Shown piece after piece: positions 20,185-59,290 of a DNA stretch of 64,000 nt. A program made the position numbers and the translations under genes. This DNA comes from an uncultured virus (IMG/VR IMGVR_UViG_3300044617_002354) (Duplodnaviria; Heunggongvirae; Uroviricota; Caudoviricetes): IMG/VR virus record IMGVR_UViG_3300044617_002354; one strand, given 5' to 3'. Positions within the stretch are counted from its first letter, which is position 1; each line of letters opens with the position of its first letter. The notes under the pieces were generated by a model, which saw only the letters and a program-made list of their open reading frames with translations, was not told the DNA's origin and ran no database searches.

Positions 20185-20590
20185 GAGATTTGAAGACATC
20201 GCTATTTCGCTCATCGATAGCAATAAATATAAAAGATGTTATCATTTTTCGTTTATCATATATAAAAAAAGAATTGTATCTATAGGGACTAACATGTCGA
20301 AGACACATCCAACAAATTTAAAAAATAGAAAGTTTTCAAAGCGTACTGGAGAAGATATATCTGAACAAAAGCATACCTGTAGTGAGTTTTCAGCTATTAA
20401 AAAATTAAAAAGACTCACAAATATACAAACAGATAGATGCACTCTTATAAATTTAAGGTATGATAGAAACTGGAACATAGCTGTAGCTAAGCCGTGTATG
20501 AGTTGCGAAAATTTACTAAAATTTTTTAGTTTTAAAAAAATTTTTTGGTCTACGAATAATAATACATATGAATACATACAAGCAAAATGA
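20123..20590 (+). CDS. second zinc-dependent deaminase-fold protein (start uncertain)
   Basis: HFSFI..KKRIVSIGTN, CSEFSAI (CxE), KPCMSC. Confidence 0.7.
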   Translation: MIQRLNCLSFMVSSVCRSRFKRFEDIAISLIDSNKYKRCYHFSFIIYKKRIVSIGTNMSKTHPTNLKNRKFSKRTGEDISEQKHTCSEFSAIKKLKRLTNIQTDRCTLINLRYDRNWNIAVAKPCMSCENLLKFFSFKKIFWSTNNNTYEYIQAK

Positions 20591-29858: not shown

Positions 29859-30137
29859 TTATTTTAACTGTTTAAATTTATTTTCTGCATCCTCTAAATC
29901 TACATATGTCCACCCCAAAACCCCCCATTGGGTGGTACTAGGGTAAACTTCTCCTGGAGGTATTTTATTACCCGCAATTTCATAGCCGTCGTGGGACTTA
30001 ATAACAATCACTTCGTAGTGAGGTTTTGCTTCTTGTATCTCTTCGTGAACTTGCTTGTAAATAGCTTTATTACCAACTCTTTTAATTTCGGTATACGCAA
30101 ATCCTTTTTTGGTAAAAAATTTTTCTAATTTCTTCAT
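29859..30137 (-). CDS. hypothetical phage protein
   Basis: YEVI...EVYPS..QWG..GWT motif; probable start ATG 30137, overlapping the queE stop. Confidence 0.6.
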   Translation of the reverse strand: MKKLEKFFTKKGFAYTEIKRVGNKAIYKQVHEEIQEAKPHYEVIVIKSHDGYEIAGNKIPPGEVYPSTTQWGVLGWTYVDLEDAENKFKQLK

Positions 30138-30898
30138 ACACGTAAAGCCATATTCCAAAGTAATAGATGCAGGCGAGGGCTAAAATTAACGTGCATAGCT
30201 TTAGCATACTCTGCTACAGCGGGGGCACGCTCGATATGCTCGTTACGAGACCCACAACACGGCATAAACCAAATGCGGCTTAATGCTACGTTTATACCGT
30301 TATTGTCATTAACATATTTTTTCCAGATTTCTTCAATATCTCTGTCTGAGGTGATTACGAACTTAAACCCAGAGTTATGCTCTTTGTGCCACTTCAAAAC
30401 ATCAGGTTTATAGGTTTTTTCCTCTGGATCGCCGTTTGTAGTTAATTTCGGGGATGTAGTAAACGTCGCGTTATACATAGTAACCCATCTCTCATCGGGG
30501 GTTAGTGTCGCATTTGTTTCAAAGTCAATTCTAGGTATGAAGTTATATCGTTCGCTGAATGCTTGAATAAATTTTAATAATTGTTTTTCTTGTATAAACG
30601 GTTCTCCACCGGTTAATTTTAATATAGCGCCGTTTTTTAAATGAAGATCGTATTGCTTTTGATCCATAAGAGTGAAGATCTCAGCAAATGACATTTTGTT
30701 TTTTACAGACCAAGAGATATAAGAATCACACCCATTGGGTGAGTCTACAGATGCAAACCCCTTACATGTTAAATTGCACATCGACATTCTCATAAAAACA
30801 GAAGGCTTACCGATATACTCTCCTTCTCCTTCTAGAGTGTAAAAAACCTTATCGTCAGATAAAAATAAATGCTCTTTGTCAATATCTATTGTATCCAT
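30134..30898 (-). CDS. queE: 7-carboxy-7-deazaguanine synthase (radical SAM)
   Basis: FYTLEGEG..G.PSVF.R, CNLTC...CDS, LTGGEP, ETN, SPK, SPRLH. Confidence 0.9.
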   Translation of the reverse strand: MDTIDIDKEHLFLSDDKVFYTLEGEGEYIGKPSVFMRMSMCNLTCKGFASVDSPNGCDSYISWSVKNKMSFAEIFTLMDQKQYDLHLKNGAILKLTGGEPFIQEKQLLKFIQAFSERYNFIPRIDFETNATLTPDERWVTMYNATFTTSPKLTTNGDPEEKTYKPDVLKWHKEHNSGFKFVITSDRDIEEIWKKYVNDNNGINVALSRIWFMPCCGSRNEHIERAPAVAEYAKAMHVNFSPRLHLLLWNMALRV

Positions 30899-30903: not shown

Positions 30904-31335
30904 TTATTCCATGTAGAGTGCACTATTTTGGTCGTGCTCCCAAACTTCAACCTTTACAACCCTACACCTCCCCTGTGTTAGCTCGTTAATATGCTTTGAT
31001 GCAACCTGAAAACAGTATTCTGCTGTCTTTTCAATACCTACTTCATCCATTATTTTTAATTTACACCCTCCATTACCATGTAATTGTTGAAATAAATGTA
31101 ATAAAGGGTCTGTTTTCGCGATACAGAGAGTATGATCAAATTGTTCTTGTAGTTCTTTTTTAAGTTCTTTTAAACCTCCGAAGTTTACAACCCAGTTTCT
31201 TTCATCAAGTTCGCCTTCAAACCAAAACTTAGCTATCAAACGATACCCGTGTACATATTTACAATGTGTGTCCTCAGCGCGCCATTGACGAAACGCGCAA
31301 GACCCAAGCTCAATAATTTTAGTGGACTGATACAT
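30904..31335 (-). CDS. queD: 6-carboxy-5,6,7,8-tetrahydropterin synthase
   Basis: CAFRQWRA..HCKYVHGY, WVVNFGGLK, FDH, VWEH..NSA. Confidence 0.9.
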   Translation of the reverse strand: MYQSTKIIELGSCAFRQWRAEDTHCKYVHGYRLIAKFWFEGELDERNWVVNFGGLKELKKELQEQFDHTLCIAKTDPLLHLFQQLHGNGGCKLKIMDEVGIEKTAEYCFQVASKHINELTQGRCRVVKVEVWEHDQNSALYME

Positions 31336-43046: not shown

Positions 43047-43092
43047 TATTTAAAATATTGAATTATTTTTGTAAACCAATAATATAATATTT

Positions 43093-43824: not shown

Positions 43825-44522
43825 GTAAAATATTTTCCGAAGAAATAATACGTTTTTACAACAAATTAATAAATGGTAAAAAATTTGCGTTTAGTAAATA
43901 TGCTGATGGAGAATGGATAGCACTTAAAGGTCAAAAAGGTACAAATAACGAATGGACTATGAATGATGGTACTAATGCCTATGATTTTTCTAGAGACCTA
44001 CTTTGGCAATCTTTTACGTATAAAGATGAAGGTTATTATATAGGTATATCGTGCCCGTGCTGTCAAGGGCAACATCACTATGATATGCTAGAACAATGTA
44101 AGCAAGATAGCGAGCATGTTACGTATGCTAATTTATTTGTTAATTCAAATTATACTTTTTTTATAGAAAAAATTATACCGTTTTTTAAGGATAAACCAAT
44201 ACATTTAGTTGCTAATAAATGTGCAAATATTGATCATCTACCTTTTTCTGTTGAGCGCTTTTACCCTATACAGTATAACGCTTGGTTGCATAACCTTGAT
44301 TTGATTAATGAAATTAGTACACAAAATTTAAACGATAAATATGTTTTGTTTTCAGCTGGCCCGTTAGGTAACATTCTCTGTCATCAGCTTTGGAATAAAA
44401 ATAAAAATAATACATATATTGACATAGGATCTACAATCGACCCGTGGACAAAAGCAAATCAGTTCGGTAGATACTATACCGATGATTCTCCGTATAAGAA
44501 TAAAGTTTGTATATGGAGTTAA
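43821..44522 (+). CDS. GT-D fold (DUF1792-like) glycosyltransferase
   Basis: FSKYADGE, FSAGP, IDIGS..D. Confidence 0.6.
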   Translation: MSKIFSEEIIRFYNKLINGKKFAFSKYADGEWIALKGQKGTNNEWTMNDGTNAYDFSRDLLWQSFTYKDEGYYIGISCPCCQGQHHYDMLEQCKQDSEHVTYANLFVNSNYTFFIEKIIPFFKDKPIHLVANKCANIDHLPFSVERFYPIQYNAWLHNLDLINEISTQNLNDKYVLFSAGPLGNILCHQLWNKNKNNTYIDIGSTIDPWTKANQFGRYYTDDSPYKNKVCIWS

Positions 44523-45148
44523 ATAGAAAATATAACGTTGAAGTGTTGAGAGAAAATTTTGGTACATACATAGTACCGGAAAATTGTAAAGGTGGTATAG
44601 CGGTAGATATAGGGTGTAATAACGGTTGCTTCTTGACAAGATATAGTAATTATTTTAGAGAGATACACGCATATGAACCTAACATCTATTTGTTTAATCT
44701 TCTAAAAAAAAAATATAGTAATCAACAACATATTTATTTTTACAATGAAGCTATATATCATACTTTAAATGAGGTATTAAGTTTAGTTAAGTACAACCAT
44801 AATGATGAAGATGGTTCATTCGCGGTGTTTACGGATAATAGCAAAGAGCATTGGTCGTTAGAAAATGAAATATGTAAAGTAAAAACCGTAGATATTGACA
44901 CAGTTGTACAACGCTGCTCACAGCGCAACATAGAGTATTTAAAGATGGATTGCGAGACAGGAGAGTATTATGGTCTCATTAATAAAGACTTAACACCATT
45001 TAAGTTTATAGGTATAGAGTTACACGGTCAGTTAAGCGCTGCGCGATATAGAGAATTGTATGAATATATAACTTCTACACATACGTGTAATATACAGTGT
45101 ATACCAGGTACAAACCAGGAAATGCTTTTCTCTAAAAAAAATGAATAA
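44507..45148 (+). CDS. FkbM-family SAM methyltransferase
   Basis: DIGCNNG, AYEP, LKMDCETGE. Confidence 0.85.
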   Translation: MYMELNRKYNVEVLRENFGTYIVPENCKGGIAVDIGCNNGCFLTRYSNYFREIHAYEPNIYLFNLLKKKYSNQQHIYFYNEAIYHTLNEVLSLVKYNHNDEDGSFAVFTDNSKEHWSLENEICKVKTVDIDTVVQRCSQRNIEYLKMDCETGEYYGLINKDLTPFKFIGIELHGQLSAARYRELYEYITSTHTCNIQCIPGTNQEMLFSKKNE

Positions 45149-45842
45149 CCTTACGCTACTCACATATACAAATTCAAATGCACAAGATATACATTCACTA
45201 TATTTTAATAGAGTTAAAAAATACTTTTCAAGTATAAAGAATGTTGTTGCAGCTTCAGATGAAGATATATCAGGGATAAACACAATTTTATATAAAAACG
45301 ATCAACCGTACTTTGAACAAATATGCAACACTTTAGATAAAATAACAACAGAATATATTCTATATAATCAAGAGGATTATATCTTATTTGATTATGTAGA
45401 TACTGAAAAGATACAAGAAACGATTGGAACATTAGCAAAAAACAATAATGTTGCCTTTGTACGTTTAATCCAGAGCGCTACACAAAATAGTGTACAAGTA
45501 AATGAAAATTACCTACAGTTAGATAAGAACCATCAGTATTTTTATAGCGCGCAAGCAGCTGTCTGGCGAAAGACTGATCTTAAGGATATGTTTTTAGCTT
45601 CAAAAGCGCAAAGCATTCGAGACGAACCTCAAAACTCTTCTTTTTTGAAAAGACTAAATAAGTATGGTTTGTGCGTGACAGGTAGAGGAAGAAAAATAGG
45701 AGATCATTTTAATTCATTAGTGTATCCGTATATAGCAACAGCCGTCGTTGGTGGTAAATGGAATTGTAGTGAGTATGAAGAAGAGTTAAGCGAGTTGTTT
45801 GAAGAATACTCAATTAATAAGAATATAAGAGGAACGAGATAA
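45141..45842 (+). CDS. glycosyltransferase-like protein
   Basis: YILYNQEDY, FVRL, QAAVWR, GKW. Confidence 0.55.
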   Translation: MNNLTLLTYTNSNAQDIHSLYFNRVKKYFSSIKNVVAASDEDISGINTILYKNDQPYFEQICNTLDKITTEYILYNQEDYILFDYVDTEKIQETIGTLAKNNNVAFVRLIQSATQNSVQVNENYLQLDKNHQYFYSAQAAVWRKTDLKDMFLASKAQSIRDEPQNSSFLKRLNKYGLCVTGRGRKIGDHFNSLVYPYIATAVVGGKWNCSEYEEELSELFEEYSINKNIRGTR

Positions 45843-45843
45843 T

Positions 45844-46842
45844 ATGATTTTAATTTGTTACGGTACAAGACCTGAATGGTTAAAAATTAAACCACTTATT
45901 TGCGAATTTAATAAGTGTGGTATAAAATATAAAACTTTATTTACCGGTCAGCATGTAGATATAGTGACTAGTAGAGCAGATTTTACGTGTAGCGTGAACA
46001 ACGACAGCTGTAAAAACAGATTAAATGCGGTAATGGTATCCACCCTCTCAATACCTGATAATATCTTTGAAGATGTTACACATGTACTTGTACAAGGAGA
46101 TACAACCTCTGCTTTGGGATTAGCGTTAAACGCATTTAATCGCGGCATTAAAATTATTCACCTTGAAGCTGGTTTAAGAACATACGATCAAAAAAACCCG
46201 TACCCTGAAGAGGCTAACAGACAAATTATTTCAAGAATAACAGATCTACATTTTTGTCCAACTAAAGATAATAAAGCGAATTTGGTTAACGAACTATGTA
46301 CAGGTAAAATATATGTTGTAGGTAATACATCCTTAGATAACATTAAGAATATTAAAACAGATTATAAAGATACTGTATTAGTAACATTACACCGTAGAGA
46401 AAATCATAACATAATAAAGGACTGGTTTATGGAGATATCTAAACTAGCTTTGAAATATAAAAAAATAAAGTTTATACTACCTATTCATCCGAACCCGAAC
46501 GTTATGAAACATAAGCACTTATTAGAGGGTGTAGAAGTAGTACCTCCTTTACCTCATTGTGATTTATTAGATATACTTGCGAACTGTAAGACAGCAATTA
46601 CAGACAGTGGGGGCATACAGGAGGAAGCAAGTTTTTTTAATAAAAAAATTATTGTATGCAGAAAGGTTACAGAGAGAGTCGAATCAATAAACACACACAG
46701 TTTTATATGTCCGACGCCTAGTAAGCTTAACAGTATATTTAGGCGAATTATTAATAATTATAAAACAAAAAAGAGTTGCCCGTATGGTGACGGTAGGACT
46801 TCTCAGAGAATATCTTCTATTTTAAAAAAATGCATAAACTAG
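45844..46842 (+). CDS. wecB: UDP-N-acetylglucosamine 2-epimerase (non-hydrolysing)
   Basis: GTRPE, TGQH, VQGDT, HLEAGLR, PEE.NR, TLHRRE, TDSGGIQEE, YGDG. Confidence 0.93.
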   Translation: MILICYGTRPEWLKIKPLICEFNKCGIKYKTLFTGQHVDIVTSRADFTCSVNNDSCKNRLNAVMVSTLSIPDNIFEDVTHVLVQGDTTSALGLALNAFNRGIKIIHLEAGLRTYDQKNPYPEEANRQIISRITDLHFCPTKDNKANLVNELCTGKIYVVGNTSLDNIKNIKTDYKDTVLVTLHRRENHNIIKDWFMEISKLALKYKKIKFILPIHPNPNVMKHKHLLEGVEVVPPLPHCDLLDILANCKTAITDSGGIQEEASFFNKKIIVCRKVTERVESINTHSFICPTPSKLNSIFRRIINNYKTKKSCPYGDGRTSQRISSILKKCIN

Positions 46843-47504
46843 CTATATTAATACAAGGTCCGAGTATGTATGTAAACGATATTAAAGCGTCGTTAAGTGG
46901 GGTTAGCGAATTATTTTTTTCAACATGGAGGGGTAGCGAAAACGCATACACAGATAGCGATGAGGTTTTCTTTAACGAGTTGCCACCCACCCCTGGACCA
47001 GCAAATATCTGCCTACAACAAACAACCACTTTAAACGGTTTGGTAGAACTTAAAAAAAGAAACTACACTCATGTATTAAAAGTCCGCAGCGATATGATTT
47101 TAACAAACCCAAGAGTATTTTTTGATAATATTAAAAACGATTCGTTAAACTTTTTATGTTGGCACCATCACGAAGTTTACCCTAATTGCCCGGGTTATTT
47201 TGTCGATTTTTTAATGTCTGGTCCTATCGACAATATGATTGAATTATGGTCATTTAATGATTATAGCTGGTGTACTGTACCAGAGATTTTTTTAACATGG
47301 AACTATATTAATAAATTAAGTTTAATAAACGACGTAGAATATTTTCTTAACACCCTAGATACCGATAATGACGTTCTCTGGATAAAGAATAACTATATGC
47401 TGTCTACGTACAAACAAGACAGAAAAGATCTTTTTAAAAAATACACTTACAGTCACAGTAAGGAGTTTTTAACTAAAGAATATAGAAATTTTTTAATAAA
47501 ATGA
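46830..47504 (+). CDS. WavE-like polysaccharide synthesis protein
   Basis: IQGP, STW, N..LQ..TT..GL, KVRSD, PE. Confidence 0.6.
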   Translation: MHKLAILIQGPSMYVNDIKASLSGVSELFFSTWRGSENAYTDSDEVFFNELPPTPGPANICLQQTTTLNGLVELKKRNYTHVLKVRSDMILTNPRVFFDNIKNDSLNFLCWHHHEVYPNCPGYFVDFLMSGPIDNMIELWSFNDYSWCTVPEIFLTWNYINKLSLINDVEYFLNTLDTDNDVLWIKNNYMLSTYKQDRKDLFKKYTYSHSKEFLTKEYRNFLIK

Positions 47505-48247
47505 ATATCGGTTTTTTAATTACAGCGTATAAACTCTTACATATTGTTGAAAATAATATTCAAGTAATTCAGCAATATAGTAAACTTTATAACTCTCATA
47601 TAGTTGTAGTAACAACTGCAGAAGAAGATGTTGGTTTTTCTGTATTGGAGGCAAAATACAAGAATGTGCATGTAATACATTTTACAGATGCACCAAAATA
47701 TGAAGCAAAAAGTTTTAGACAAACACCACCTCTTCATGGTGTTAGTTTAGCGCAACGTATTTTTCTAAGTATCGAAAAAGGTCTTAAAGAGCACGAAAAG
47801 TTAAATACAGATATTTGCGTTCATGTTCACAGTGAGAGTTACTGGGTAAAAGAAGCAGAAGACATCTTATTACGGTATTGTAAAGAAGTGCATGATGAGC
47901 ATTTACTATTTTCTGGAGATTTATGTGAGGAGGATAACCACACGCCTATAGCTGCATATACTCACTTTCACCCAGAAGGTTTAATTATAAATATTAAAAA
48001 AGCAAAAGATTTAGGTTTTATAGAGCTTAATCGAATTTGGACAGATTTAAATTTTAACAGTCATAATTTTGGTTCTATAGAAGCATTGATAGGTCAATTT
48101 GCACTGTATTGCGTTACAGGTCAGCTGATCTTAAATAAAGAACCGTTAAATGAATTATATTTTAAAAACGTAAAAGCGAGACAAATAAGACCGTATCATG
48201 GCGTATTTAAAGACGGGTTTGTTAATGTAGAAATAAAACAAAGGTAA
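47501..48247 (+). CDS. glycosyltransferase-like hypothetical protein
   Basis: N-terminal FLITAYK and VHVHSE at the DxD position; island context. Confidence 0.45.
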   Translation: MNIGFLITAYKLLHIVENNIQVIQQYSKLYNSHIVVVTTAEEDVGFSVLEAKYKNVHVIHFTDAPKYEAKSFRQTPPLHGVSLAQRIFLSIEKGLKEHEKLNTDICVHVHSESYWVKEAEDILLRYCKEVHDEHLLFSGDLCEEDNHTPIAAYTHFHPEGLIINIKKAKDLGFIELNRIWTDLNFNSHNFGSIEALIGQFALYCVTGQLILNKEPLNELYFKNVKARQIRPYHGVFKDGFVNVEIKQR

Positions 48248-48262
48248 TTATAATTACATTTT

Positions 48263-48871
48263 ATGTATAAAAAAACAGTTATTGAAATTGGTGCGAACAA
48301 TGGTAACGACACCGAGAGGTTATTGAATATGCACCCAGATGCTATTATATACGCTTTTGAACCAACACAAGAATTACTTATTAACAACTTATGGCCAAAA
48401 TTTAAAGACAACAAACGTGTACGCGTACTACCGTTTGCTGTAGATGTAGTAAATAGTTTTAAAGAATTTAAAATAGCAGGGTGGTATGATTGGGGATGTA
48501 GTAGCTTGCATGATTTTGCGGATAATGCAAGAGAGGAGTGGCCTGGCAATGTAGATTTTAAGGTAACTCACAAATATTTCGTACCAACAATAACTATGCA
48601 AGATTTTTGTATAATGTACGGTATAACTAATATAGATTATTTACACATTGACACTCAAGGGAACGATTTCAATTGTTTATTGTCTTTTAAAGACCAGATT
48701 AAAATTGTACAAGGTGGTAGATGTGAAGTTGAAGCAAAAGTAAAATTGTATAAAGGAGTCGATAATTCTCTTAATAGCGTTAAAAGCTGGCTTATTGAAA
48801 ATGGTTTTCATGTAAATTGTTCGAATAATTTAGAAATAAGCCCTGAAGCAGATTTAGATTTTTATAGATAA
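48263..48871 (+). CDS. FkbM-family SAM methyltransferase
   Basis: EIGANNG, AFEP, LHIDTQGND. Confidence 0.85.
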   Translation: MYKKTVIEIGANNGNDTERLLNMHPDAIIYAFEPTQELLINNLWPKFKDNKRVRVLPFAVDVVNSFKEFKIAGWYDWGCSSLHDFADNAREEWPGNVDFKVTHKYFVPTITMQDFCIMYGITNIDYLHIDTQGNDFNCLLSFKDQIKIVQGGRCEVEAKVKLYKGVDNSLNSVKSWLIENGFHVNCSNNLEISPEADLDFYR

Positions 48872-48917
48872 ATAGTATGTTTATGTATACATACAATATT
48901 GTATAAAATACCTTATT

Positions 48918-49847
48918 ATGTATTATTTTTTAAATAAACATCTTTTAACTGTTGAGGATATTAAAACAGCTGCAAATTACGGCGGACAAGATATTTTTCT
49001 CGTGATACCGCTTCTTTCAGAGAGTCTGTACTATGAACATCTTGTACCAGGTCTCTGTAATCACAATGAATCTTTATACACAAAAATGTTCTTTTCAGGA
49101 CAAAACAGCATTCGTTACACAGACAAACTTGAGAGTTGCGATTTTTCAATTGTACCGTTTAAATTTAAAAAAGACGATACACGGATAAAAAATATATGTG
49201 ATGCAGCAAAAAAATATAAAAAAACGGTTATTGCGTTTTTTACCGATGACGATGTAGAGAGTTACGTATTACCTGAAAACTTATTTTTGTATAGAACCTC
49301 TGTGAATAAAAACTCTCAACAAGTCAACGAAAGAGTCATGCCGGCGCTGCACTCAGATCACTTTTTTGGTTTTACGGATTATAGTAATTCAATAAGTTTT
49401 TGCGGGCAGCTTACAGAGTTAAGATACAGGGTTATTCAAGAAATACAACAAACAGACATTAAAACTGACTTTATTATAAGGCGAGGTTTTTGGGCCCCAG
49501 AAGTAGGCTCTAAAATTAAAGCGCGTAAACAATATTATGAAAATTTATTAAAAAATCGTTATGCATTATGTGTTAGAGGTTCTGGTAACTTTTCATTTCG
49601 ATTTTATGAAGCTTTGTGTTTTGGAAGAATACCGATACTTATAGATACTGATATTTCGCTTCCGTTTTCTCATATTATAGATTGGGATAAACATATAATT
49701 TGTATAAAAGAGAGTGAAATTAGTGCACTTCCAGAATTAATAAAAACAGACAACAGAGATATGTTTGAAAATAGAAAATTATGGGAAGAATATTTTTCTA
49801 TTGAAGGCTACACTAAAAATTTTATAAAAGAAATAAACCTAAGTTGA
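48918..49847 (+). CDS. exostosin/GT47-like glycosyltransferase
   Basis: FCG, YALCVRGSGNFSFRFYEAL..GRIPI...LPF..IIDW. Confidence 0.8.
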   Translation: MYYFLNKHLLTVEDIKTAANYGGQDIFLVIPLLSESLYYEHLVPGLCNHNESLYTKMFFSGQNSIRYTDKLESCDFSIVPFKFKKDDTRIKNICDAAKKYKKTVIAFFTDDDVESYVLPENLFLYRTSVNKNSQQVNERVMPALHSDHFFGFTDYSNSISFCGQLTELRYRVIQEIQQTDIKTDFIIRRGFWAPEVGSKIKARKQYYENLLKNRYALCVRGSGNFSFRFYEALCFGRIPILIDTDISLPFSHIIDWDKHIICIKESEISALPELIKTDNRDMFENRKLWEEYFSIEGYTKNFIKEINLS

Positions 49848-49871
49848 AATATATAAAGTTTCTGGTATAAT
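49844..49871 (+). promoter_or_regulatory. sigma70-like promoter
   Basis: TTGAAA-N16-TATAAT. Confidence 0.65.
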
Positions 49872-49882
49872 AAAATATATAT

Positions 49883-50449
49883 ATGGAACATTTTTTTTAT
49901 AAAATACAAGGGTGGTTTACGTATCCTAATTTCTACAGGAGCGCAGTTTTACAAGCTAAAGACGGTTTTCATTTTGTTGAGATTGGTTCGTGGAAAGGTT
50001 CGTCAGCGGCGTTTATGGGGGTCGAAATTTTAAACTCCGGTAAAAAGATTCAATTTGATTGTGTAGACACCTGGGAAGGTAGTGTTGAGCATAAAACCGA
50101 TAAAACATCTCAGTTTTATGAGCCTTTACTTGAAACAAAAGATGCTTTATATGAAGTTTTTTTAAAGAATATTGAACCTCTTAAAGATATTATTACACCT
50201 AAACGAGCACCATCTGTTGAAGGAGCTAAACTATACGCGGATGACACTTTAAATTTTGTTTTCATTGATGCTGCACATGATTACGAAAATGTTTTTAAGG
50301 ATGTTAAAGCATGGTTACCAAAAGTAAAACAAGGCGGGGTGCTAGCAGGGCATGATATACACGATGAAGGTATACAAAAAGCTGTAGCTGATGTTTTAGG
50401 AGACTTTAAAACTACAGAAGAGGATGTTTGGTATTATAAAAAGAAATAA
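49883..50449 (+). CDS. class I SAM methyltransferase (Methyltransf_24-like)
   Basis: VEIGSWKGSS, VDTW, FIDAAHDY, GGVLAGHD. Confidence 0.85.
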   Translation: MEHFFYKIQGWFTYPNFYRSAVLQAKDGFHFVEIGSWKGSSAAFMGVEILNSGKKIQFDCVDTWEGSVEHKTDKTSQFYEPLLETKDALYEVFLKNIEPLKDIITPKRAPSVEGAKLYADDTLNFVFIDAAHDYENVFKDVKAWLPKVKQGGVLAGHDIHDEGIQKAVADVLGDFKTTEEDVWYYKKK

Positions 50450-50454: not shown

Positions 50455-52254
50455 GTGCGCTCAGTTAATTTCGTTACATTAGCGGTAAAAAATTTTTTGT
50501 CTATTGGGCAAACACCTGTTACAATAAACTTTCAAAATGGTGTTAACGTTATTACAGGTATAAATTACGATAAGGAAGACTCTAAAAATGGAGTCGGAAA
50601 ATCCACAATTATAGATGCAATACATTTTGCACTATTTGGTACAACCACTAGAGGCTTAAATAAGGATTTAATTCCTAATTCATACACAAACGAAAAATGT
50701 GAAGTTATTTTAGATTTCGAGATTATACAAAACAATTCTTTAGATGTTTATAGAATTGTTAGAACGATTAATCCAACGAAATGTTTTTTATATAAAAATA
50801 AAGAAGACATCACACTTTCGACAATTGTAAAAACAAATGAATATATACAGGAGTTACTCCGGTCTTCAGAAAGTGTATTTCAAAATTCAGTTGTTATGTC
50901 TATGGGTACAGCTGTACCTTTTATGGCACAATCAAAAATTGATAAAAGAAAGTTTATTGAGAATATTTTAAATCTCGAAATTTTTTCAAAAATGCTTAGT
51001 TATATAAGAGACGAGCATAATGAAAATAAAAAAGAATATGAGATAGCGTATAATAAGAAAGAAAATTTATTTAAAACACTACAAAACTACACAGATCAAA
51101 TTAAAGAATTTGAAAACAATAAACAAATAAAGCTTCAAGAAATTAAAAAGAAACTTACAAACAATTTACAAGAAATACAAAAATTAAAACAAAATTTTAA
51201 CAAAATAGATTCTAACAACATTGAGAGTTTCGATTTACAAGAAGAGCAGCTTCGACAAGAATTAAAAAACAGAGACGCCCTCCTTAAAAAATTTGAAGAA
51301 AAAAAAGTTGAGATTACCACTTTACTTAAAAATCATAAAGACAGTATTATAAAAATACAAGAAAAAGGAAATATTTGCGCTCTTTGTAAAAGACCGTACA
51401 CAGAAAGTGAAACAGAAATTGCTAAAAACCATGTCGAAGAACATATACATGAGATAAACCTTTTACAAAATAAAAAACAAACCGTACTACAAGGAATTGA
51501 TCAAATTAATACAGCTAATAACATAACTAATAAAAAAATAAAAGAGATTAATGAAAAGAAAAGTAAATTAGAAACTGTTAGTAGAAACAATATTGTTTTA
51601 GAAAACAAAGTACTACTACTTGAAGGTCTTAATAATCAACTCAATGAGAACATTCTTGACATACAGCAAGAAACAAACAAACATTTAGAGAAGGCATTTC
51701 AACAGACAACCGATGAATATAATGCGTGTACAACCTTAGTAGACGGGTTAAATGAAAAATTAAAAGTTTTTGAGTGCGCAAAGTTTATAGTATCAGAGGA
51801 AGGGGTTAAAGCGTACATAGTTAAAAAAATGCTTACATTATTAAATGCGCGTATAGCTTTTTACCTTCAAAAAATGAACGCTAACTGTATGTGCACGTTT
51901 AATGAGTTTTTTGAAGATGAAGTACGCAGCGAAGATGGTATCGCGCGTTCGTATTTTAATTTTTCAGGGGGAGAGAGAAAACGTATTGATTTAGCCTGTT
52001 TATTTGCGTTTTTAGATATTAGAAGATTACAAGGTAATATTCATTACAGTACTATTTTTTATGATGAATTATTTGATTCTGCGTTAGATAATGCTGGAAC
52101 TGAATGTGTTTTTAAAATTTTAAGAGATAGACAAGAACTTTACGGAGAAAATAGTTATATTATCACACATAGAGGTGAGGAATTAATAAATCGAGCAGAT
52201 AACATTATTATGCTTGAAAAAAGAAACAATATTACATATTTAATAAAACAATGA
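50455..52254 (+). CDS. recombination ATPase subunit (T4 gp46/Rad50/SbcC-like)
   Basis: KNFLSIG, NGVGKST, CALC zinc hook, FSGGE, DE. Confidence 0.93.
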   Translation: MRSVNFVTLAVKNFLSIGQTPVTINFQNGVNVITGINYDKEDSKNGVGKSTIIDAIHFALFGTTTRGLNKDLIPNSYTNEKCEVILDFEIIQNNSLDVYRIVRTINPTKCFLYKNKEDITLSTIVKTNEYIQELLRSSESVFQNSVVMSMGTAVPFMAQSKIDKRKFIENILNLEIFSKMLSYIRDEHNENKKEYEIAYNKKENLFKTLQNYTDQIKEFENNKQIKLQEIKKKLTNNLQEIQKLKQNFNKIDSNNIESFDLQEEQLRQELKNRDALLKKFEEKKVEITTLLKNHKDSIIKIQEKGNICALCKRPYTESETEIAKNHVEEHIHEINLLQNKKQTVLQGIDQINTANNITNKKIKEINEKKSKLETVSRNNIVLENKVLLLEGLNNQLNENILDIQQETNKHLEKAFQQTTDEYNACTTLVDGLNEKLKVFECAKFIVSEEGVKAYIVKKMLTLLNARIAFYLQKMNANCMCTFNEFFEDEVRSEDGIARSYFNFSGGERKRIDLACLFAFLDIRRLQGNIHYSTIFYDELFDSALDNAGTECVFKILRDRQELYGENSYIITHRGEELINRADNIIMLEKRNNITYLIKQ

Positions 52255-53489
52255 CAAATTACGCTTTAACACAATCAGGTTTAAATTCAATCATTGGTAG
52301 ACCTATCGGGTTACCACCTTTTATACCAGGGGGTATACACGCTACCCCGCAAAGAGAGGCAGCTTTACCTCCACCTGAAATGCCTGGTCAAGGTTTGCCA
52401 AGAGCTGTTAATTATTTAGCTGATTATGGTGGGTGTAGTTTTTACAGGTGTATGTCACCAAATTTACTTTTAAATTTGTACCAAAAAGCAGTTGTTATTG
52501 AGTCAACAGCTATGGTGCTAGATCCTAGATTTTACCAGGAAGTAAAAGCTGTAAAAGTGCAAAGACAAGCAACTCCTATACAGAAAGAGTTTATACGCGT
52601 ACTAAAAGGCCTATCTCGTCAGATTGGTTTTAAAATAATTTATGAAGTAGATGATATAGTTTTTAGAGAAGACATTCCAGATTATAATCGAAATAAAGAA
52701 GCGTTTGTTTCAGATGAAATTAGAAACTCAATCATTGATATTATTGAAATGTGTGATGAGGTCACTGTTACGTGTGATTTCATGAAAGATTATTTTAAGA
52801 GCAAAACAAATAATCAAAACGTTACAGTTATTCCGAACTATCTCTTGAGATGGTGGTTTGATCGATATTACGATTTTAACAAGCTTATAAAGAATTACGA
52901 AAAAAATAAAAAGAAACCAGTTGTATCTATTTTTGCTTCAGGTACTCACGTTGATGTTATCAACCGCACTAACCAACGAGATGATTTTACAGCAGTTATC
53001 GGGGCAATTATTAAATCGAGAAAAGATTTTAAGTGGCAATTTTTTGGAAGTTACCCGCTACCGTTAAAACCGTTTATAGATTCCGGTGAAATGATATACA
53101 GCCCTTGGGCTCAATTACCTGATTTTCCTGGTGTTGTTGCTAACTCTGGGTCACAATTAACATTTGCAGCTTTAGAAGATAATAACTTTAATCGCGCTAA
53201 GAGCAACATTAAGTTGTTAGAAGCTGGTGCAATAGGATTACCGTGTGTTTGTCCGGATATGGTTACATATAAAGACGCGTTTTTGAAATATAAAACAGGC
53301 GATGAATTTATTGATCAAATTAAGTATGCACTAAAAGATCAAACTCGTTACGGTCAGCTTTGTAAGAAGTCAAGAGAGTATACAGAGAAGTTTTGGCTTG
53401 AAAGTGAAAACAACATCGGCAAACACCATGAAGCCTATTTTACTCAGTACGGCTCTTCTGAAAGAAAGTTTTTAAAAGAAGTAAATTAA
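52251..53489 (+). CDS. GT-B-like phage glycosyltransferase
   Basis: ADYGGCSFYR, YEVDD, VTVIPN, FNRAKSNIKLLE.GA.G.P. Confidence 0.75.
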   Translation: MTNYALTQSGLNSIIGRPIGLPPFIPGGIHATPQREAALPPPEMPGQGLPRAVNYLADYGGCSFYRCMSPNLLLNLYQKAVVIESTAMVLDPRFYQEVKAVKVQRQATPIQKEFIRVLKGLSRQIGFKIIYEVDDIVFREDIPDYNRNKEAFVSDEIRNSIIDIIEMCDEVTVTCDFMKDYFKSKTNNQNVTVIPNYLLRWWFDRYYDFNKLIKNYEKNKKKPVVSIFASGTHVDVINRTNQRDDFTAVIGAIIKSRKDFKWQFFGSYPLPLKPFIDSGEMIYSPWAQLPDFPGVVANSGSQLTFAALEDNNFNRAKSNIKLLEAGAIGLPCVCPDMVTYKDAFLKYKTGDEFIDQIKYALKDQTRYGQLCKKSREYTEKFWLESENNIGKHHEAYFTQYGSSERKFLKEVN

Positions 53490-53538: not shown

Positions 53539-56091
53539 ATGTATCGAAATTGTTATTATAATAGCTACACAAGTAGTGTATTTCTTCGTACCTGGTCTGA
53601 AGAAGGTGTGCGAATTGATACAGAGATGCCATTTTCACCATATCTTTACGTAGAGGACGAAAAAGGTAATTGCGCAACATCTATATTTAAGACACCACTT
53701 AAAAGAAAAAACTTTCAGAATAGCTTTGAAAGAAACAAGTTTGTAAAAGAATCAGGTAAAAAACGCTTTTTTGGTAACCTGCCTCCAGAGCAACAATTTC
53801 TTATTGATATGTATCATGAGAGTGTTCATGATAAAGATTTTAGTAAATTTCCTTTAAAAGTATATTATTTTGATATTGAAACATACTCACCAGATAGCTT
53901 TCCTTTACCTAAGGAAGCAAAGGACCCTGTTATTTTAATTACAGTATACAATTCACTCAACGGTCAAATAGATACATGGGGTGTAGAGAAAGAATACACT
54001 CCAAAACAAAAAAACGTAAAATATCATTGCTGTGATTCTGAAGTTGAGCTGTTTGATAGGTTTATGAAGTTCTGGAAAGCTGACCCACCAGATTTATGGG
54101 TCGGATGGAACAGTGAACAGTTCGATATACCGTATATTATTAACAGAGGTCGAAAGCTACTTAATGATGATTTTATCAATCAGCTTTCTCCGTTAAAAAG
54201 CTTAAGGTATAGAGAGTTTCGTAATGACTTTGGTCAAGAGACAGGTAAATGGATTATAAACGGTATAAGCTGTATTGATTATATGGACTTATATAAGAAG
54301 TTTTCAAAAGGAGATAGAGAGTCTTATTCTTTGAACTATATAGCTGAGTATGAATTAGAGGAAGGAAAGCTCGCTATTAATGCAACTAATCTTTCAAGCC
54401 TCGCTGAAACTAATTGGGAGAATTTTGTTGATTATAATATACAGGATGTTAACCTGCTAATTAAGCTTGATAAGAAACTAAATTTTTTGAATATTGTGAG
54501 GCTTTTAGCTTATAAAGGTTGTACAAATTTCGAAGCAGCTTTAGGTAAAATTGCAATTGTTACTGGCGCTATGTCACTACAAGCTCGAGAGCAAGGCTAT
54601 GTTATACCTACATTTGTAAATGATGAGATACGAGATTCGCTTGCAGGAGGGTTTGTAAAAGACCCAGTACGAGGGTTACACGATGGTATAGTTAGTTTTG
54701 ACGTAAACTCTCTATACCCAAACACAATCATTACGTTAAATATATCTTCAGAAACAAAGCTTGGTAAAATTATTACAGGAGACATTGAGAAAGATCCGCG
54801 TATACAAATAAAACTTGTTAATGGTGCAGTTTCTTCAATAGAAACGGAAAAATTTAAAAAATTTATAAAAGATGAAAAAGTAGCAGTGTCAAAGGCTGGG
54901 GTGTTATACTCTCAGAAATTTAAAGGGGTTTGCCCTAATTTAATCAATAAGATCTACACAGAAAGAGTTGAAGCAAAAAAGAAAATGAAAGAACTTCAAC
55001 TTAGTAAAAAGCACGATAAAAGCACAAAAGACTCTATTGTATATTATGATACATTACAGTATACGTTAAAAATCTTACTTAATAGTATATATGGAGTTTT
55101 CGCAAATAAACACTCTCCATTTATGGATATTGATAATGCTTCATCAATTACGCTTACAGGTCAGGCTGTTGCTAAAGCAGGTTCAGATATCATAAGAAAT
55201 TTTGTAACTCAGAAGTACGGCATCACAGATGATGTGGTTATTTATAATGACACTGATTCTTGTTATATTACGATAAAACCAATTTTGCAAAAATATAACA
55301 TACGTTTAGTTGATGATTCGAACCATATAACGCAAGAAGCGCATGTCGTTGTTAACGAGATAGATAAAATTGTAAACACGGAAATTCTTGCTTGGGCGAG
55401 AACTGAACTCAATTCCATGGACCCGCGTTACGAGTTTAAGAGAGAAGCTATTGCAGATGTTGGTACGTTTTTACAAAAAAAGAGATATATTATTAGAGTT
55501 TTAGACGATGAAGGTATACCAACAAATAAGTTTAAATATGTCGGGGTTGAAATTGCAAGATCAACGACCCCTAAAAAAGTAAAAGATCTTATTAAAAAGA
55601 CAGTAGAAACAGCATTTTTAACAAAGGATGTTAAAAAGACAAATGATACGTTTAGAGAAGTTTATGAAGAGTTTAAAAAACTCGATGAACAAGAAGCTTC
55701 TTTTAGAAAAGCTGTAAAGGATTACGAAAAATATAGTAAGACTACAGATTTAAGCAAGTTTGAAAAAGGTACACCGTGTCATGTTAAAGCGGCTATTGCA
55801 TATAATTTATTACTTAAAGCTTTTAAAATTGAAAACAAATACGAAAAAATAAACTCTGGTCAAAAAATAAAATATTTCTATGCAGCAAAAAACCGTTACA
55901 ATCTCGATGCGGTTGCATTTGTGGCAAAGTTTCCAGATGAATTTAAAGAATATATAAAAATTGACTACAATAAAATGTTTGATAAAATAGTCGCAGCACC
56001 AATTGAAAGCGTGTATGAGGCTATTAATTGGAGAGTACCAAATTTTTCTAAAGAAATACAAACAGATTTATTTGATTTATTGGATGAATAA
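53539..56091 (+). CDS. family B DNA polymerase (T4 gp43-like)
   Basis: Exonuclease DIET, FDIPY, YNIQD; polymerase DVNSLYP, KILLNSIYG, YNDTDS, KKRY. Confidence 0.95.
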   Translation: MYRNCYYNSYTSSVFLRTWSEEGVRIDTEMPFSPYLYVEDEKGNCATSIFKTPLKRKNFQNSFERNKFVKESGKKRFFGNLPPEQQFLIDMYHESVHDKDFSKFPLKVYYFDIETYSPDSFPLPKEAKDPVILITVYNSLNGQIDTWGVEKEYTPKQKNVKYHCCDSEVELFDRFMKFWKADPPDLWVGWNSEQFDIPYIINRGRKLLNDDFINQLSPLKSLRYREFRNDFGQETGKWIINGISCIDYMDLYKKFSKGDRESYSLNYIAEYELEEGKLAINATNLSSLAETNWENFVDYNIQDVNLLIKLDKKLNFLNIVRLLAYKGCTNFEAALGKIAIVTGAMSLQAREQGYVIPTFVNDEIRDSLAGGFVKDPVRGLHDGIVSFDVNSLYPNTIITLNISSETKLGKIITGDIEKDPRIQIKLVNGAVSSIETEKFKKFIKDEKVAVSKAGVLYSQKFKGVCPNLINKIYTERVEAKKKMKELQLSKKHDKSTKDSIVYYDTLQYTLKILLNSIYGVFANKHSPFMDIDNASSITLTGQAVAKAGSDIIRNFVTQKYGITDDVVIYNDTDSCYITIKPILQKYNIRLVDDSNHITQEAHVVVNEIDKIVNTEILAWARTELNSMDPRYEFKREAIADVGTFLQKKRYIIRVLDDEGIPTNKFKYVGVEIARSTTPKKVKDLIKKTVETAFLTKDVKKTNDTFREVYEEFKKLDEQEASFRKAVKDYEKYSKTTDLSKFEKGTPCHVKAAIAYNLLLKAFKIENKYEKINSGQKIKYFYAAKNRYNLDAVAFVAKFPDEFKEYIKIDYNKMFDKIVAAPIESVYEAINWRVPNFSKEIQTDLFDLLDE

Positions 56092-56108
56092 GTTAAAATA
56101 CTAGCACC

Positions 56109-56939
56109 GTGAAAATATCTCATGAAGTACCTATTGACTTGTTAGATGTCTCTCATTCTTTTAATGATTACTGTTATTGTTTAGTACATTTACTTCCACA
56201 GTTCTCTAAATACAGAGAACACTACTTTAATAGCGTTAAAGTGGGTAGGCATGTATTACTCGATAATAGTATTTTTGAGTTAGGAGAAGCTTATGACTCA
56301 GCTGAATTTGCAAAATGGGTTAAAGACTTATCTCCTACAGAATATATTGTGCCGGATGTTTTAGAGAATTCAGCGCTCACAAAACAAAAGTATTTAGAGT
56401 TTTTTGATACGTACCCTAACCTACCCGGTAAAGTTATTACAGTTGTTCAGGGACAGACATATGAGGAAATAAAAGAGCTATATTTGTTTTTCTTAAATGA
56501 AGAAAGAGTGAATAAAATAGCTATATCTTTTGATTATAGCTATTACTTGTCAGAGGAGTGTAAACAGTATGCTGCACGTCTTAATTTTAATGCAAAGAAC
56601 GGTAAATGGTGGGAATACACACTAGGCAGAGCTGCAACACTTTTTAGGTTAAAAGAAGAAAATATACTATCAAGTAAAAAGAAGCTACATTTACTTGGAT
56701 GCTCATTACCTATTGAATTTAGTTTTTATAAATATCTTGACCTCGATTCGTATATTGATACTATTGATACATCAAACCCTGTCGTGGCTGGTATGTTAGG
56801 TAAAAGATATTCTACAGAGGGACTGGATGAAAAATGGTCATATAAGTTAGTTGATTTTATAGAAGCAAAACTCACCACCAAGCAGGTAAAAGATGCATGG
56901 TATAATGTTAATAAATTTAAAAGGTTTTTACATAAGTGA
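56109..56939 (+). CDS. divergent TGT-fold protein, DpdA (DpdA3-like) 7-deazaguanine insertion enzyme
   Basis: LLDNSIFELG, PDV, VVQG, HLLG, IDTSNP TGT-barrel motifs; next to queF. Confidence 0.65.
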   Translation: MKISHEVPIDLLDVSHSFNDYCYCLVHLLPQFSKYREHYFNSVKVGRHVLLDNSIFELGEAYDSAEFAKWVKDLSPTEYIVPDVLENSALTKQKYLEFFDTYPNLPGKVITVVQGQTYEEIKELYLFFLNEERVNKIAISFDYSYYLSEECKQYAARLNFNAKNGKWWEYTLGRAATLFRLKEENILSSKKKLHLLGCSLPIEFSFYKYLDLDSYIDTIDTSNPVVAGMLGKRYSTEGLDEKWSYKLVDFIEAKLTTKQVKDAWYNVNKFKRFLHK

Positions 56940-57469
56940 AAAAGTGGGTAGCATTGTTTTCTCAAACAGGTAGTGAAATCTATAATCTTTCAAAAGATTT
57001 AAAAAGATCTCCAGATGTTATTGTTACAAATAAATCGTTTCAAGACATAGAATTGATTAATTTTAATCTCGTTAACACGCACTGGTCTAAATTTCTTTGG
57101 TTACCAAAGAAACCCACGGTGGATGAATACATCCTAGCTTTAGAAGGAGCAGATATAGTCACCTTACATGGTTATTTACGTATAATACCTAAAGAAGTGT
57201 GTGATATGTTTAATATATACAATCTTCATCCAGCACCTTTAACGAGATACCCGTTTTTAAAAGGTAAAGATCCGCAAAAAAAGATTTTTGAGCAAAAATT
57301 AGATTATGGCGGGAACACTATACATAAGTGTACCGCTGAATTAGATAGCGGGGAAATTATTTTAGAAGAAGATTTTTTTATAAAAGACTATAGACTCGAT
57401 ATAATTATCGGTTTGACGCATAAAAGAGCATCAGCTTTATGGTATAAATTTTTAAAAAATAATTTATGA
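56936..57469 (+). CDS. PurN-like formyltransferase, DpdN-like
   Basis: FSQTGSE, GYLRI, NLHP, G.TIH, LDSG. Confidence 0.8.
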   Translation: MKKWVALFSQTGSEIYNLSKDLKRSPDVIVTNKSFQDIELINFNLVNTHWSKFLWLPKKPTVDEYILALEGADIVTLHGYLRIIPKEVCDMFNIYNLHPAPLTRYPFLKGKDPQKKIFEQKLDYGGNTIHKCTAELDSGEIILEEDFFIKDYRLDIIIGLTHKRASALWYKFLKNNL

Positions 57470-57984
57470 AAATAGCAATATCTGGTGGAGCAAGTCAAGG
57501 AAAAAGTACTATAGTTAATATGCTTAAAGAAGATAGCATGTTTCAAGAGTATAATTTTTGCACTAACTTAACAAGAAATTTATCTCAGCAAGGTATACCA
57601 ATTAATGAAGGAGGTACCGCGATAACACAACTTCACGTTATGCTCAAACATTTCGAGAGACTATATATGTATGAGAATGCTGTATTAGATCGTTGTGCAC
57701 TAGATGGGTTAGCATACAGCATGTATTTTTTTGACAAAATTGAAAAACCTGTACGAGAAGCAATTATAAAGCTTTTTGAAGCTATGATTGTAAAGTATGA
57801 TAAAATTTTTTATATACCACCTGAGTTACCACTAATAGAAGACGGTGAGCGTTCAGTGGATAGAAATTTTTTTAACGGAGTAAACAAGAATTTTGAAGCA
57901 GTAATTAGGGATTATAGTGTAGATGTTATTCGTATTAGCGGCACAGTTACTGAGAGAATAAAGCAGATTAAATCAAATTTATGA
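57466..57984 (+). CDS. P-loop nucleotide kinase-like protein (AAA_28/dNMP kinase fold)
   Basis: GGASQGKST, DRCALD, DGER. Confidence 0.75.
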   Translation: MKIAISGGASQGKSTIVNMLKEDSMFQEYNFCTNLTRNLSQQGIPINEGGTAITQLHVMLKHFERLYMYENAVLDRCALDGLAYSMYFFDKIEKPVREAIIKLFEAMIVKYDKIFYIPPELPLIEDGERSVDRNFFNGVNKNFEAVIRDYSVDVIRISGTVTERIKQIKSNL

Positions 57985-58889
57985 ATACAAAATTAGATAA
58001 TACAGAAATAAGTAAAGTTTTAGGGCAAAGAGTTGATGCCCCGAAACAGTACAGTAAGGATATCTTGGTTCGAGAGAAAAGATCTAATAATCGAGAATAT
58101 CTAAATATTAAAGAAGAAGAGCTACCGTTTTTCGGTGTCGATATTTGGAATAACTGGGAAATAAGCGCCCTTACCGAGGGTGGGTTACCGGTTACAGGTG
58201 TAGCAAAAATTACATACCCGTGTAATAGCCCGTATATTGTTGAGTCAAAATCGGCAAAACTTTATTTTAACTCATTCAATATGACAAAATTTGGAAAAAC
58301 ACCAGAAGAAGTAATTAGCAATATCGAGAGAGTAGCAAGTTTGGATTTATCCGAATTCTTAGAGACAAAAGTAGAAGTACATATTTTTTCTTCTGCAAAT
58401 AATCCATACACTTCAGATGCGGAAGGCTATTTTAATACATTTAAACTTATAGATAGAGTTAACCCGCACCTTGTTACAGATGTATATAGTGAGAGTAAAG
58501 AGTTATTAAGTTGGGAAGCCGGTGACACTCTTGCACCGATACCACAGCGATTTTCGAGCACTCTGTTAAGATCTAATTGCCGTGTAACCAATCAACCAGA
58601 TGCGGGAGATGTTTTTATAAGTATAACGTCATCTAAAATAATTGATCAAGAGAGTTTATTAAAATATATTATAAGTTTTAGAAATGAATGTCATTTTCAC
58701 GAAGAAGTTTGTGAGTGTATATACACGAGACTTAATGAGGTGTACGCTCCCACTGAACTTCTCGTTATGTGTTTTTACGTAAGACGAGGTAGTTTAGATA
58801 TTAACCCAATACGGGCAAGTAAAATGGAAGTAATACCTGGTTTTTTATTAGAACCTAAAGCCCCGTACGCAAAATTTCGCAGACAGTGA
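57981..58889 (+). CDS. queF: NADPH-dependent preQ0 reductase (long bimodular type)
   Basis: DIWNNWEISAL, VESKSAKLYFNS, LLRSNCRVTNQPD (catalytic Cys), FHEE, RRGSLDINP.R. Confidence 0.92.
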   Translation: MNTKLDNTEISKVLGQRVDAPKQYSKDILVREKRSNNREYLNIKEEELPFFGVDIWNNWEISALTEGGLPVTGVAKITYPCNSPYIVESKSAKLYFNSFNMTKFGKTPEEVISNIERVASLDLSEFLETKVEVHIFSSANNPYTSDAEGYFNTFKLIDRVNPHLVTDVYSESKELLSWEAGDTLAPIPQRFSSTLLRSNCRVTNQPDAGDVFISITSSKIIDQESLLKYIISFRNECHFHEEVCECIYTRLNEVYAPTELLVMCFYVRRGSLDINPIRASKMEVIPGFLLEPKAPYAKFRRQ

Positions 58890-58927: not shown

Positions 58928-59290
58928 ATGAAACAAGAAAATACGTTAATTACATTTTTAGACTCAGTCGGTAGAACTGTACTGGGTGAAAAAGTTGAAG
59001 AAAAAACTACAGACAAAATTTTAGCGGTTAAAAACCCTGCAGTTGTCGCTATCTCCCCTCAACCACAGGGTGGTTTGCAACTTCAAATTCTTCCTTTATT
59101 TTTTAAAGAGTTTTTAGCAGATAAAAATGAGTCTACAGTTTGGTTGTATCAAAAGAACACTCTTACAATGTGTGAACAAATTCTTTTTGATTTTAAGCTT
59201 AACGCTCAATATCAACAGCTATTTGCACCGATACCTGTCCAGCCTCAAGGACAATCTCCCGAAGTCGTTAAACTTTTTGACGACGAATAA
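58928..59290 (+). CDS. hypothetical protein, possible Sm-like fold
   Basis: G.TVLG....L.VKNPAV pattern; own promoter at 58891. Confidence 0.55.
   Translation: MKQENTLITFLDSVGRTVLGEKVEEKTTDKILAVKNPAVVAISPQPQGGLQLQILPLFFKEFLADKNESTVWLYQKNTLTMCEQILFDFKLNAQYQQLFAPIPVQPQGQSPEVVKLFDDE

Follow-up and report, generated by a model that had tools for sequence, protein, structure and literature searches.

We analysed a 64,000-nucleotide (nt) stretch of DNA from an uncultured virus (IMG/VR record IMGVR_UViG_3300044617_002354; hereafter the window), a fragment of a T4-like phage with a G+C content of about 32%, and describe here a cassette of four genes that directly follows its DNA polymerase gene (polB) and is predicted to encode a DpdA3-type transglycosylase with the fold of tRNA-guanine transglycosylase (TGT), a DpdN-type formyltransferase, a P-loop kinase and the reductase QueF (Table 1). 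The cassette very probably belongs to the published DpdA3/DpdN system of Flavobacterium phage immuto_2-6A (immuto below), whose DNA contains fdPreQ1, the deoxynucleoside of formyl-preQ1, in place of 2'-deoxyguanosine (dG), and would carry this module into an uncultured T4-like lineage that branches deeply. Since the genes correspond one for one and stand in the same order, the prediction that the present phage likewise carries fdPreQ1 instead of dG appears well founded. The near-obligate pairing of DpdA3 with a kinase makes the route to 100% replacement of G by a 7-deazaguanine directly testable. We favour, at about even confidence, a modification that would take place on free nucleosides or nucleotides before replication over an exchange on finished DNA, a preference suggested by the constant kinase pairing, by the hydrolases that neighbour DpdA3 in other phages and by the published complete replacement of G.

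A megablast search with the cassette found no nucleotide match in 50,697 phage records. For the first cassette protein, Pfam gave no family, the only sequence match was phrog_19058 (annotated function: none), and Pfam searches with all 38 family members yielded no TGT family, the sole match being a weak one to DUF6610 in five of them. As phmmer and profile searches against PDB sequences also returned no TGT (the best match, E = 0.13, was an unrelated protein), a fold search was needed. An AlphaFold2 (AF2) model built on the 38 homologs reached a predicted local distance difference test (pLDDT) score of 94.5, and every match that Foldseek listed for it was a TGT or an archaeal-type TGT (ArcTGT), with a best E of 4e-7. 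In VIA-align, which is independent of Foldseek, ArcTGT ranked first (Z 17.4; root-mean-square deviation (rmsd) 3.1 over 233 residues) and the DNA preQ0 insertase DpdA (7ui4) second (Z 17.1; rmsd 3.3 over 231 residues), followed by TGT (Z 15.4), QTRT2 (15.1), PdxJ (14.8), Cap10 (14.1) and other TIM barrels (13.5 or less). In its predicted structure the protein is a TGT-type (beta/alpha)8 barrel. Comparison with phage proteins then placed it within that fold: tblastn gave 40% identity at 94-99% coverage to immuto gp206, annotated as 'DNA guanine transglycosylase DpdA', and to proteins of Campylobacter phage CP220 (gp056) and its relatives, where the homolog is annotated as hypothetical, and hhalign matched the family to CGPG_00065 of Cellulophaga phage phiST (probability 98.1%, E = 8e-14, 235 columns). 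The immuto, CP220-type and phiST proteins are the members named DpdA3 by Cui, Hutinet et al. (NAR 2023, PMC10516641).

The DpdA3 family so defined comprised 3343 proteins at E <= 1e-3 and was acidic, with a median isoelectric point of 5.5. D52 (in LLDNS), D83 (PDV) and D220 (IDTS) were invariant across the 38 sequences and kept in phiST, and there was no invariant Cys. The three residues lie at strand ends in motifs resembling those of TGT catalysis and may be the catalytic aspartates, and the absence of Cys may reflect a lost TGT zinc site; the hhalign match to E. coli TGT (25 columns aligned, low probability) was too weak to map residues. While bacterial DpdA and TGT share the barrel (Z 15-17), the window protein lacks the zinc-site cysteines and, at 276 amino acids (aa) against 373-413 aa for TGT and DpdA chains, is about 100-140 residues shorter. 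Three longer proteins of the family were fused forms (P0241, P0243 and P0242), two of them DpdA3-QueF fusions of 531 and 566 aa and the third, of 586 aa, carrying an unassigned 317-aa N-terminal part before the DpdA3 domain. None of these three was a DpdA3-kinase fusion, which is weak evidence, and prediction of a DpdA3-kinase complex scored 0.00 in two runs without controls and is evidence neither way.

The second cassette protein was 44% identical to immuto gp204 over 176/177 residues (E = 3e-48), and gp204 (YP_010114479.1) is predicted as DpdN by Cui et al. 2023 (PMC10516641). Its best PDB matches were PurN (E = 1e-6), and in HMMER alignments NLHP at residue 96 (N96, H98) and ELDSG at residue 135 (D137) fell on the PurN motifs. 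N96, H98 and D137 may form the PurN-type catalytic Asn-His-Asp. With a PurN equivalog score of 36.9 bits, far under the cut-off of 150.1, the protein is not PurN itself. The fourth protein matched TIGR03138 at E = 1.4e-70 (238 bits, under the cut-off of 293.45), with both Pfam domains above their cut-offs, was 44% identical to immuto QueF, and carried ESKSAKLY at residue 88 and Cys200 in NCRVTNQPD, both of which we take to be QueF motifs. QueF thus adjoins DpdA3, and QueD- and QueE-like genes lie 25 kb upstream of the cassette on the opposite strand, so that DpdA3 is encoded together with genes of 7-deazaguanine synthesis. A first-pass annotation, made from the letters alone, had read the four open reading frames (ORFs) after polB as a TGT-barrel protein, a stand-alone PurN-like formyltransferase linked to fdPreQ1, a P-loop kinase and QueF; Pfam, fold comparison and orthology bear out all four identities, and the first two can now be named more narrowly, as DpdA3 and as DpdN rather than PurN.

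The closest known counterpart is the immuto block gp206/gp204/gp203/gp202, in which DpdA3, DpdN, kinase and QueF follow one another in the same order, a small ORF standing after DpdA3, at identities of 40, 44, 33 and 44% to the window proteins; QueD and QueE are common to both phages, and gp203 is annotated as 'thymidylate kinase'. The two cassettes differ in placement, lying after PolB and before uvsX in the window and upstream of PolA in immuto, and no MazG-like gene, phosphoribosyltransferase, FolE or QueC is seen in the 64 kb of the window. Since Cui et al. 2023 (PMC10516641) reported 345,000 fdPreQ1 per 10^6 nucleotides in immuto DNA and saw no peak for dG, this orthologous and syntenic block sustains the connection of the cassette to fdPreQ1 that had been drawn in the first pass. 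CP220 and its relatives (Firehammervirus) share only part of the arrangement: their DpdA3 homolog (40%) is immediately followed by an AAA_28 kinase (34%), as in the window, with no DpdN or QueF beside DpdA3, and CP220 DNA carries 2'-deoxy-7-amido-7-deazaguanosine (dADG) according to the same paper (PMC10516641). In phiST, whose protein is the founding DpdA3 member, a P-loop protein adjoins DpdA3 and the cluster lies near polymerase genes, as in the window, whereas the product is 7-deazaguanine (dDG), made with DpdL, QueF and DpdN are absent, and the P-loop protein is not orthologous to the window kinase.

We next assessed how closely the kinase follows DpdA3. Viral contigs held 561 confirmed DpdA3 loci, of which the 80 best, at 44-74% identity, were searched with the window proteins; 62 of the 80 had at least 1800 nt downstream of DpdA3 and were testable, the other 18 being contig ends. 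The kinase was present in 61 of these 62 loci, QueF in 58 and the formyltransferase in 50. DpdA3 was accompanied by the kinase without the formyltransferase in 11 loci, 4 of which also lacked QueF, and in 10 of the 11 the kinase started 0-27 nt 3' of DpdA3, while in the remaining one (L078) it lay upstream. Among cultured phages, as derived from the tblastn coordinates of both proteins, the kinase lay just downstream on the same strand in all 18 records whose DpdA3 match was full-length, 14 of them from Campylobacter and 4 from Flavobacterium phages. The kinase is thus the most constant and tightest neighbour of DpdA3, and the co-occurrence that the first pass had proposed to look for is evident in both sets.

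More distant members also have P-loop proteins at their side. The phiST gene adjoining DpdA3, CGPG_00066 (L085, 8382-8861, minus strand), encodes a kinase-like P-loop protein of the AAA_18 family (9.4e-7; 29.8 bits, the cut-off being 29.4), and is listed by Cui et al. 2023 (PMC10516641) as without homologs in other deazaguanine phages. In Bacillus phage BSTP12 (L083, 4336-5684), a DpdA3-like gene, 26% identical and wrongly labelled NadR, lies between an upstream P-loop ORF and PolA, with a Gat-QueC/QueD/QueE/FolE cluster. Such DpdA3-like matches, from Bacillus and Weizmannia phages, numbered 7 records in total, and the BSTP12-type genes may represent a further DpdA3-like lineage. In the main text and one supplementary file of Cui et al. 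2023, a term search found no occurrence of the word 'kinase', and immuto gp203 is undiscussed there.

By sequence, the kinase matched phrog_2107 ('thymidylate kinase', 1e-23), and a family profile search returned deoxynucleoside kinase (dNK; 2e-6), NadR (1e-4) and thymidylate kinase (TMPK; 8e-3). The fold ranking of its AF2 model (pLDDT 90.4) was headed by the ribosylnicotinamide kinase (RNK) domain of NadR (Z 17.5 and 15.8), followed by human deoxyguanosine kinase (dGK; 15.0), Dm-dNK (14.9), Giardia deoxyadenosine kinase (14.5) and vaccinia TMPK (14.4). The modelled protein is a member of the dNK/TMPK/NadR-RNK superfamily. A second AAA_28 kinase paralog of the window, beside the ribonucleotide reductase genes, shared 30% identity with the cassette kinase across 134 aa. 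Such a second AAA_28 gene recurred in two of three fragments from T4-like relatives but was absent from G006, a complete immuto-like record; a role for it in the pathway is possible.

The route that we favour would run as follows. QueD and QueE from the window, with FolE and QueC encoded elsewhere in the genome or by the host, would make preQ0, which QueF, as assigned by orthology, would reduce to the free base preQ1, the established reaction of this enzyme. The zinc-less, TGT-fold DpdA3 would replace the guanine of a 2'-deoxyguanosine nucleoside or nucleotide by the deazaguanine base, DpdN would formylate the aminomethyl group, and the translationally coupled kinase would phosphorylate the modified product. 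Host or phage kinases would then complete the deoxynucleoside triphosphate (dNTP), and the replicative polymerase would incorporate the modified nucleotide. Put more generally, and with slightly less than even confidence, we propose that DpdA3 is not a DNA transglycosylase and would be the first TGT-fold enzyme to swap guanine for 7-deazaguanine on a free dG nucleoside or nucleotide, that the linked kinase, aided by MazG or HD hydrolases in phages that have them, yields the dNTP, and that, in conflict with the published model, the modification of dDG, dADG and fdPreQ1 genomes precedes replication. If true, fully G-replaced phage genomes would arise pre-replicatively, which could overturn the post-replicative model and define a new substrate class of the TGT superfamily, and the enzyme could offer an enzymatic route to 7-deaza-dGTP analogues. 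Our literature search brought up no work that proposes or tests a route for DpdA3 at the nucleotide level (subscription journals lay outside its coverage), and among the relevant works searched the terms 'DpdA3' and 'fdPreQ1' were confined to Cui et al. 2023 and its preprint.

The proposal has a precedent in logic in phage T4. The cassette occupies the slot between polB and uvsX, where T4 has gene 42 (dCMP hydroxymethylase) and b-gt. In the T4 hydroxymethyl-dC route, the dCTPase gp56 clears dCTP, gp42 modifies dCMP, the deoxynucleoside monophosphate (dNMP) kinase gp1 phosphorylates the product and the polymerase incorporates it. The enzymes of the two systems are without homology; T4 is proven to modify at the nucleotide level, which for the cassette is an inference, and no clearing enzyme was found in the window. 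Besides this gene-42 slot, we counted for pre-replicative modification the small, acidic and zinc-less character of DpdA3 and the 4-nt overlaps that join the cassette genes. We also counted the distribution of the kinase: tblastn against the 50,697 phage records gave matches in phages of Streptomyces (86), Campylobacter (17) and Flavobacterium (4) and in no other phage group, with none named from 9g-, CAjan- or phiSM-type phages (DpdA1/DpdA2 types).

The strongest competitor, to which we assign a lower though still considerable probability, is the published proposal of post-replicative base exchange (Cui et al. 2023, PMC10516641). Here DpdA3 would act on replicated DNA as a highly efficient transglycosylase and exchange each G there for preQ1 or formyl-preQ1, DpdN would formylate the free base or dPreQ1 in DNA, and the kinase would be a general dNTP-supply enzyme linked to DpdA3 by shared early expression. 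A general supply kinase, however, should accompany DpdA3 no more regularly than QueF or DpdN, yet it is found in 61 of the 62 loci and these two in 58 and 50; its exchange for an unrelated P-loop protein at the same position in phiST would likewise be unexpected. DpdA3 phages have all their G replaced, against at most 30% with the other DpdA types, which act on DNA, and DpdA3 by itself showed no activity in E. coli, as reported in the same paper (PMC10516641), which also records the nucleoside of 7-amido-7-deazaguanine (ADG) in CP220-infected cells. Nucleoside triphosphate (NTP) hydrolases, which would have no role in an exchange on DNA, stand beside DpdA3 in three lineages: a MazG gene in phiST (4.8e-6), a PRA-PH/MazG-like gene two genes upstream of DpdA3 in immuto (3e-10; PRA-PH was present in 2/2 near-complete immuto-like records), and an HD+AAA_33 fusion gene directly upstream of DpdA3 in CP220.

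Several observations nevertheless weigh against a pre-replicative route and, in part, for exchange on DNA. The top fold matches, ArcTGT, DpdA and TGT, all act on polynucleotides, judged by their structure titles, and the DNA preQ0 insertase is among the best of them. No MazG, HD, PRA-PH or Nudix gene, and thus no dGTP-clearing enzyme, was found among the window ORFs, and MazG, HD and PRA-PH were found in 0/5 related T4-like fragments, which at 28-53% completeness are uninformative on this point. FolE and QueC were likewise not found in the 64-kb window, and occurred in 1/5 and 0/5 of the same fragments, respectively; given this completeness, and a genome size for the clade of about 210 kb estimated from the CheckV values of relatives, of which the window is roughly a third, their absence means little. 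In the model, the kinase fold is no farther from nucleoside kinases than from dNMP kinases and does not separate the two acceptor levels. One locus (L052) has DpdA3 and QueF without any kinase, and the counts, drawn from the best 80 of 561 loci at 44-74% identity, cover one sub-family. Finally, the occurrence of AAA_28 kinases in Streptomyces phages without DpdA3 indicates that the kinase family is not pathway-specific. The Streptomyces homologs had no DpdA3 context and were rejected as part of the system.

The polymerase was no guide in this matter. The first-pass annotation had envisaged modification at the dNMP level followed by incorporation through a possibly adapted PolB. Of this, the pre-replicative part gains from the kinase counts (61/62 and 18/18) and the hydrolases in three lineages, while the dNMP level is not established, since the kinase fold is at least as near to nucleoside as to dNMP kinases, and no dGTP-clearing enzyme came to light in the window or in the five related fragments. 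The adapted polymerase found no support, as the same cassette adjoins PolA in immuto and BSTP12, so that co-expression with replication genes fits better than polymerase specialisation. The window PolB itself (exonuclease domain 1.7e-24 in Pfam; phrog_262, 5e-200) was at most about 31% identical to cultured phage PolBs, and at this distance its sequence tells nothing on adaptation.

Two further explanations were considered. In a ribonucleotide route, which we regard as improbable, the base would be joined to phosphoribosyl pyrophosphate (PRPP) by a phosphoribosyltransferase, phosphorylated by the kinase, reduced by ribonucleotide reductase and incorporated by the polymerase, leaving DpdA3 a side role such as residual-G proofreading or recycling. 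A small phosphoribosyltransferase within the que cluster of immuto (gp211; Pribosyltran 1e-8) and the class I ribonucleotide reductase subunits that adjoin the second kinase paralog in the window fit this scheme, but no phosphoribosyltransferase, and no match to immuto gp211, was detected among the window ORFs, and the universal element of these cassettes is DpdA3, not the transferase. That the cassette serves tRNA modification instead, TGT-fold enzymes and QueF being part of the tRNA queuosine pathway, is very improbable, given that the orthologous immuto cassette accompanies fdPreQ1 in virion DNA (PMC10516641), that the protein is nearer to phiST DpdA3 (hhalign probability 98.1%) than to E. 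coli TGT (the weak 25-column match) and that the zinc-site cysteines are absent.

The layout of the locus is compact. The first cassette ORF begins 17 nt after polB, and the three inner junctions are GTGA/ATGA overlaps of 4 nt that chain the four genes, a layout typical of translational coupling. The first pass had assigned the cassette a promoter of its own, TTGATT-N16-TAAAAT. The motif is present at the position then given and scores 9/12 in a generic sigma-70-like scan, but 8 kb contained 45 such sites against 35.8 +/- 6.0 in shuffles, so that a generic site alone is not above chance, and comparison of relatives placed the TTGATT hexamer within conserved C-terminal codons of polB. A stricter pattern, TTGAnn-N16-TAnAAT, had 12 matches in the window, 8 of which sit 3-14 nt 5' of an ORF start (17443, 18972, 31683 on the minus strand, 49844, 53498, 56072, 58891 and 59353) and therefore look like a recurrent phage promoter-like signal; the genes so preceded include polB, the cassette, the next ORF and uvsX. 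The strict pattern also lay within 60 nt 5' of dpdA3 in 10/78 related loci, some of them without polB upstream. A separate cassette promoter is thus plausible. With sites only 3-14 nt from ORF starts, mRNA leaders would be very short or missing altogether.

Table 1. Positions of the cassette genes, the adjoining polymerase gene and promoter-like motif, and further pathway-related genes in the window
Feature	Position	Strand	Evidence and remarks
QueE-like radical SAM enzyme (7-carboxy-7-deazaguanine (CDG) synthase)	30134..30898	-	phrog_2076 5e-42; TIGR03963 4e-12, under cut-off; Fer4_12
QueD-like 6-carboxytetrahydropterin synthase	30904..31335	-	PTPS 3.7e-17; phrog_2389 5e-33; 44% to immuto QueD
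Second AAA_28 kinase paralog, 212 aa	24292..24930	+	beside ribonucleotide reductase genes; AAA_28 3.2e-12
Family-B DNA polymerase PolB (T4 gp43-like)	53539..56091	+	directly 5' of cassette; Pfam DNA_pol_B 1.9e-28
Promoter-like TTGATT-N16-TAAAAT	56072..56099	+	ends 10 nt ahead of GTG start
DpdA3-type TGT-fold transglycosylase, 276 aa	56109..56939	+	GTG start; predicted
DpdN-type formyltransferase, 177 aa	56936..57469	+	Formyl_trans_N (Pfam PF00551) 2.4e-12; predicted
NadR-RNK/dNK/TMPK-superfamily P-loop kinase, 172 aa	57466..57984	+	AAA_28 4.1e-14 (Pfam); predicted
QueF, two-domain type, preQ0 -> preQ1 reductase, 302 aa	57981..58889	+	QueF_N 3.1e-32 + QueF 5.7e-19

Further features of the window were recorded alongside the cassette. 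A 120-aa ORF (58928-59290) lies between QueF and uvsX and is kept in 27/80 related loci, including ones without DpdN and QueF; the ESM Atlas gives only unnamed viral clusters for it. Just 5' of polB stands a glycosyltransferase (GT)-like gene (52251-53489), additional to an island of about 12 kb (38174-50449) of glycosyl- and methyltransferase-like genes that is set between recombination nuclease genes resembling gp47 (36516-37556) and gp46 (50455-52254) and contains two GT2 genes, a UDP-GlcNAc 2-epimerase (4.8e-67), two FkbM methyltransferases, a GT47 exostosin-like gene, Methyltransf_24 and many family-less ORFs. Two neighbouring, out-of-frame overlapping ORFs (19765-20184, 5.4e-13, and 20123-20590, 1.5e-4) match the dCMP/cytidine deaminase zinc-binding family; they could represent one deaminase that is split or frameshifted, or a pair of separate small enzymes. 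On the minus strand, 33243-33698 encodes a homing endonuclease of the GIY-YIG type that resembles SegE (3.8e-29), tandem DnaJ homologs lie at 2-943 and 983-1711, both on the minus strand, and an Hsp20 small heat-shock gene lies at 23750-24223. Large proteins of the structural region (5340-13837) carry RCC1-repeat propeller and legume-lectin domains and are probably host-recognition fibres.

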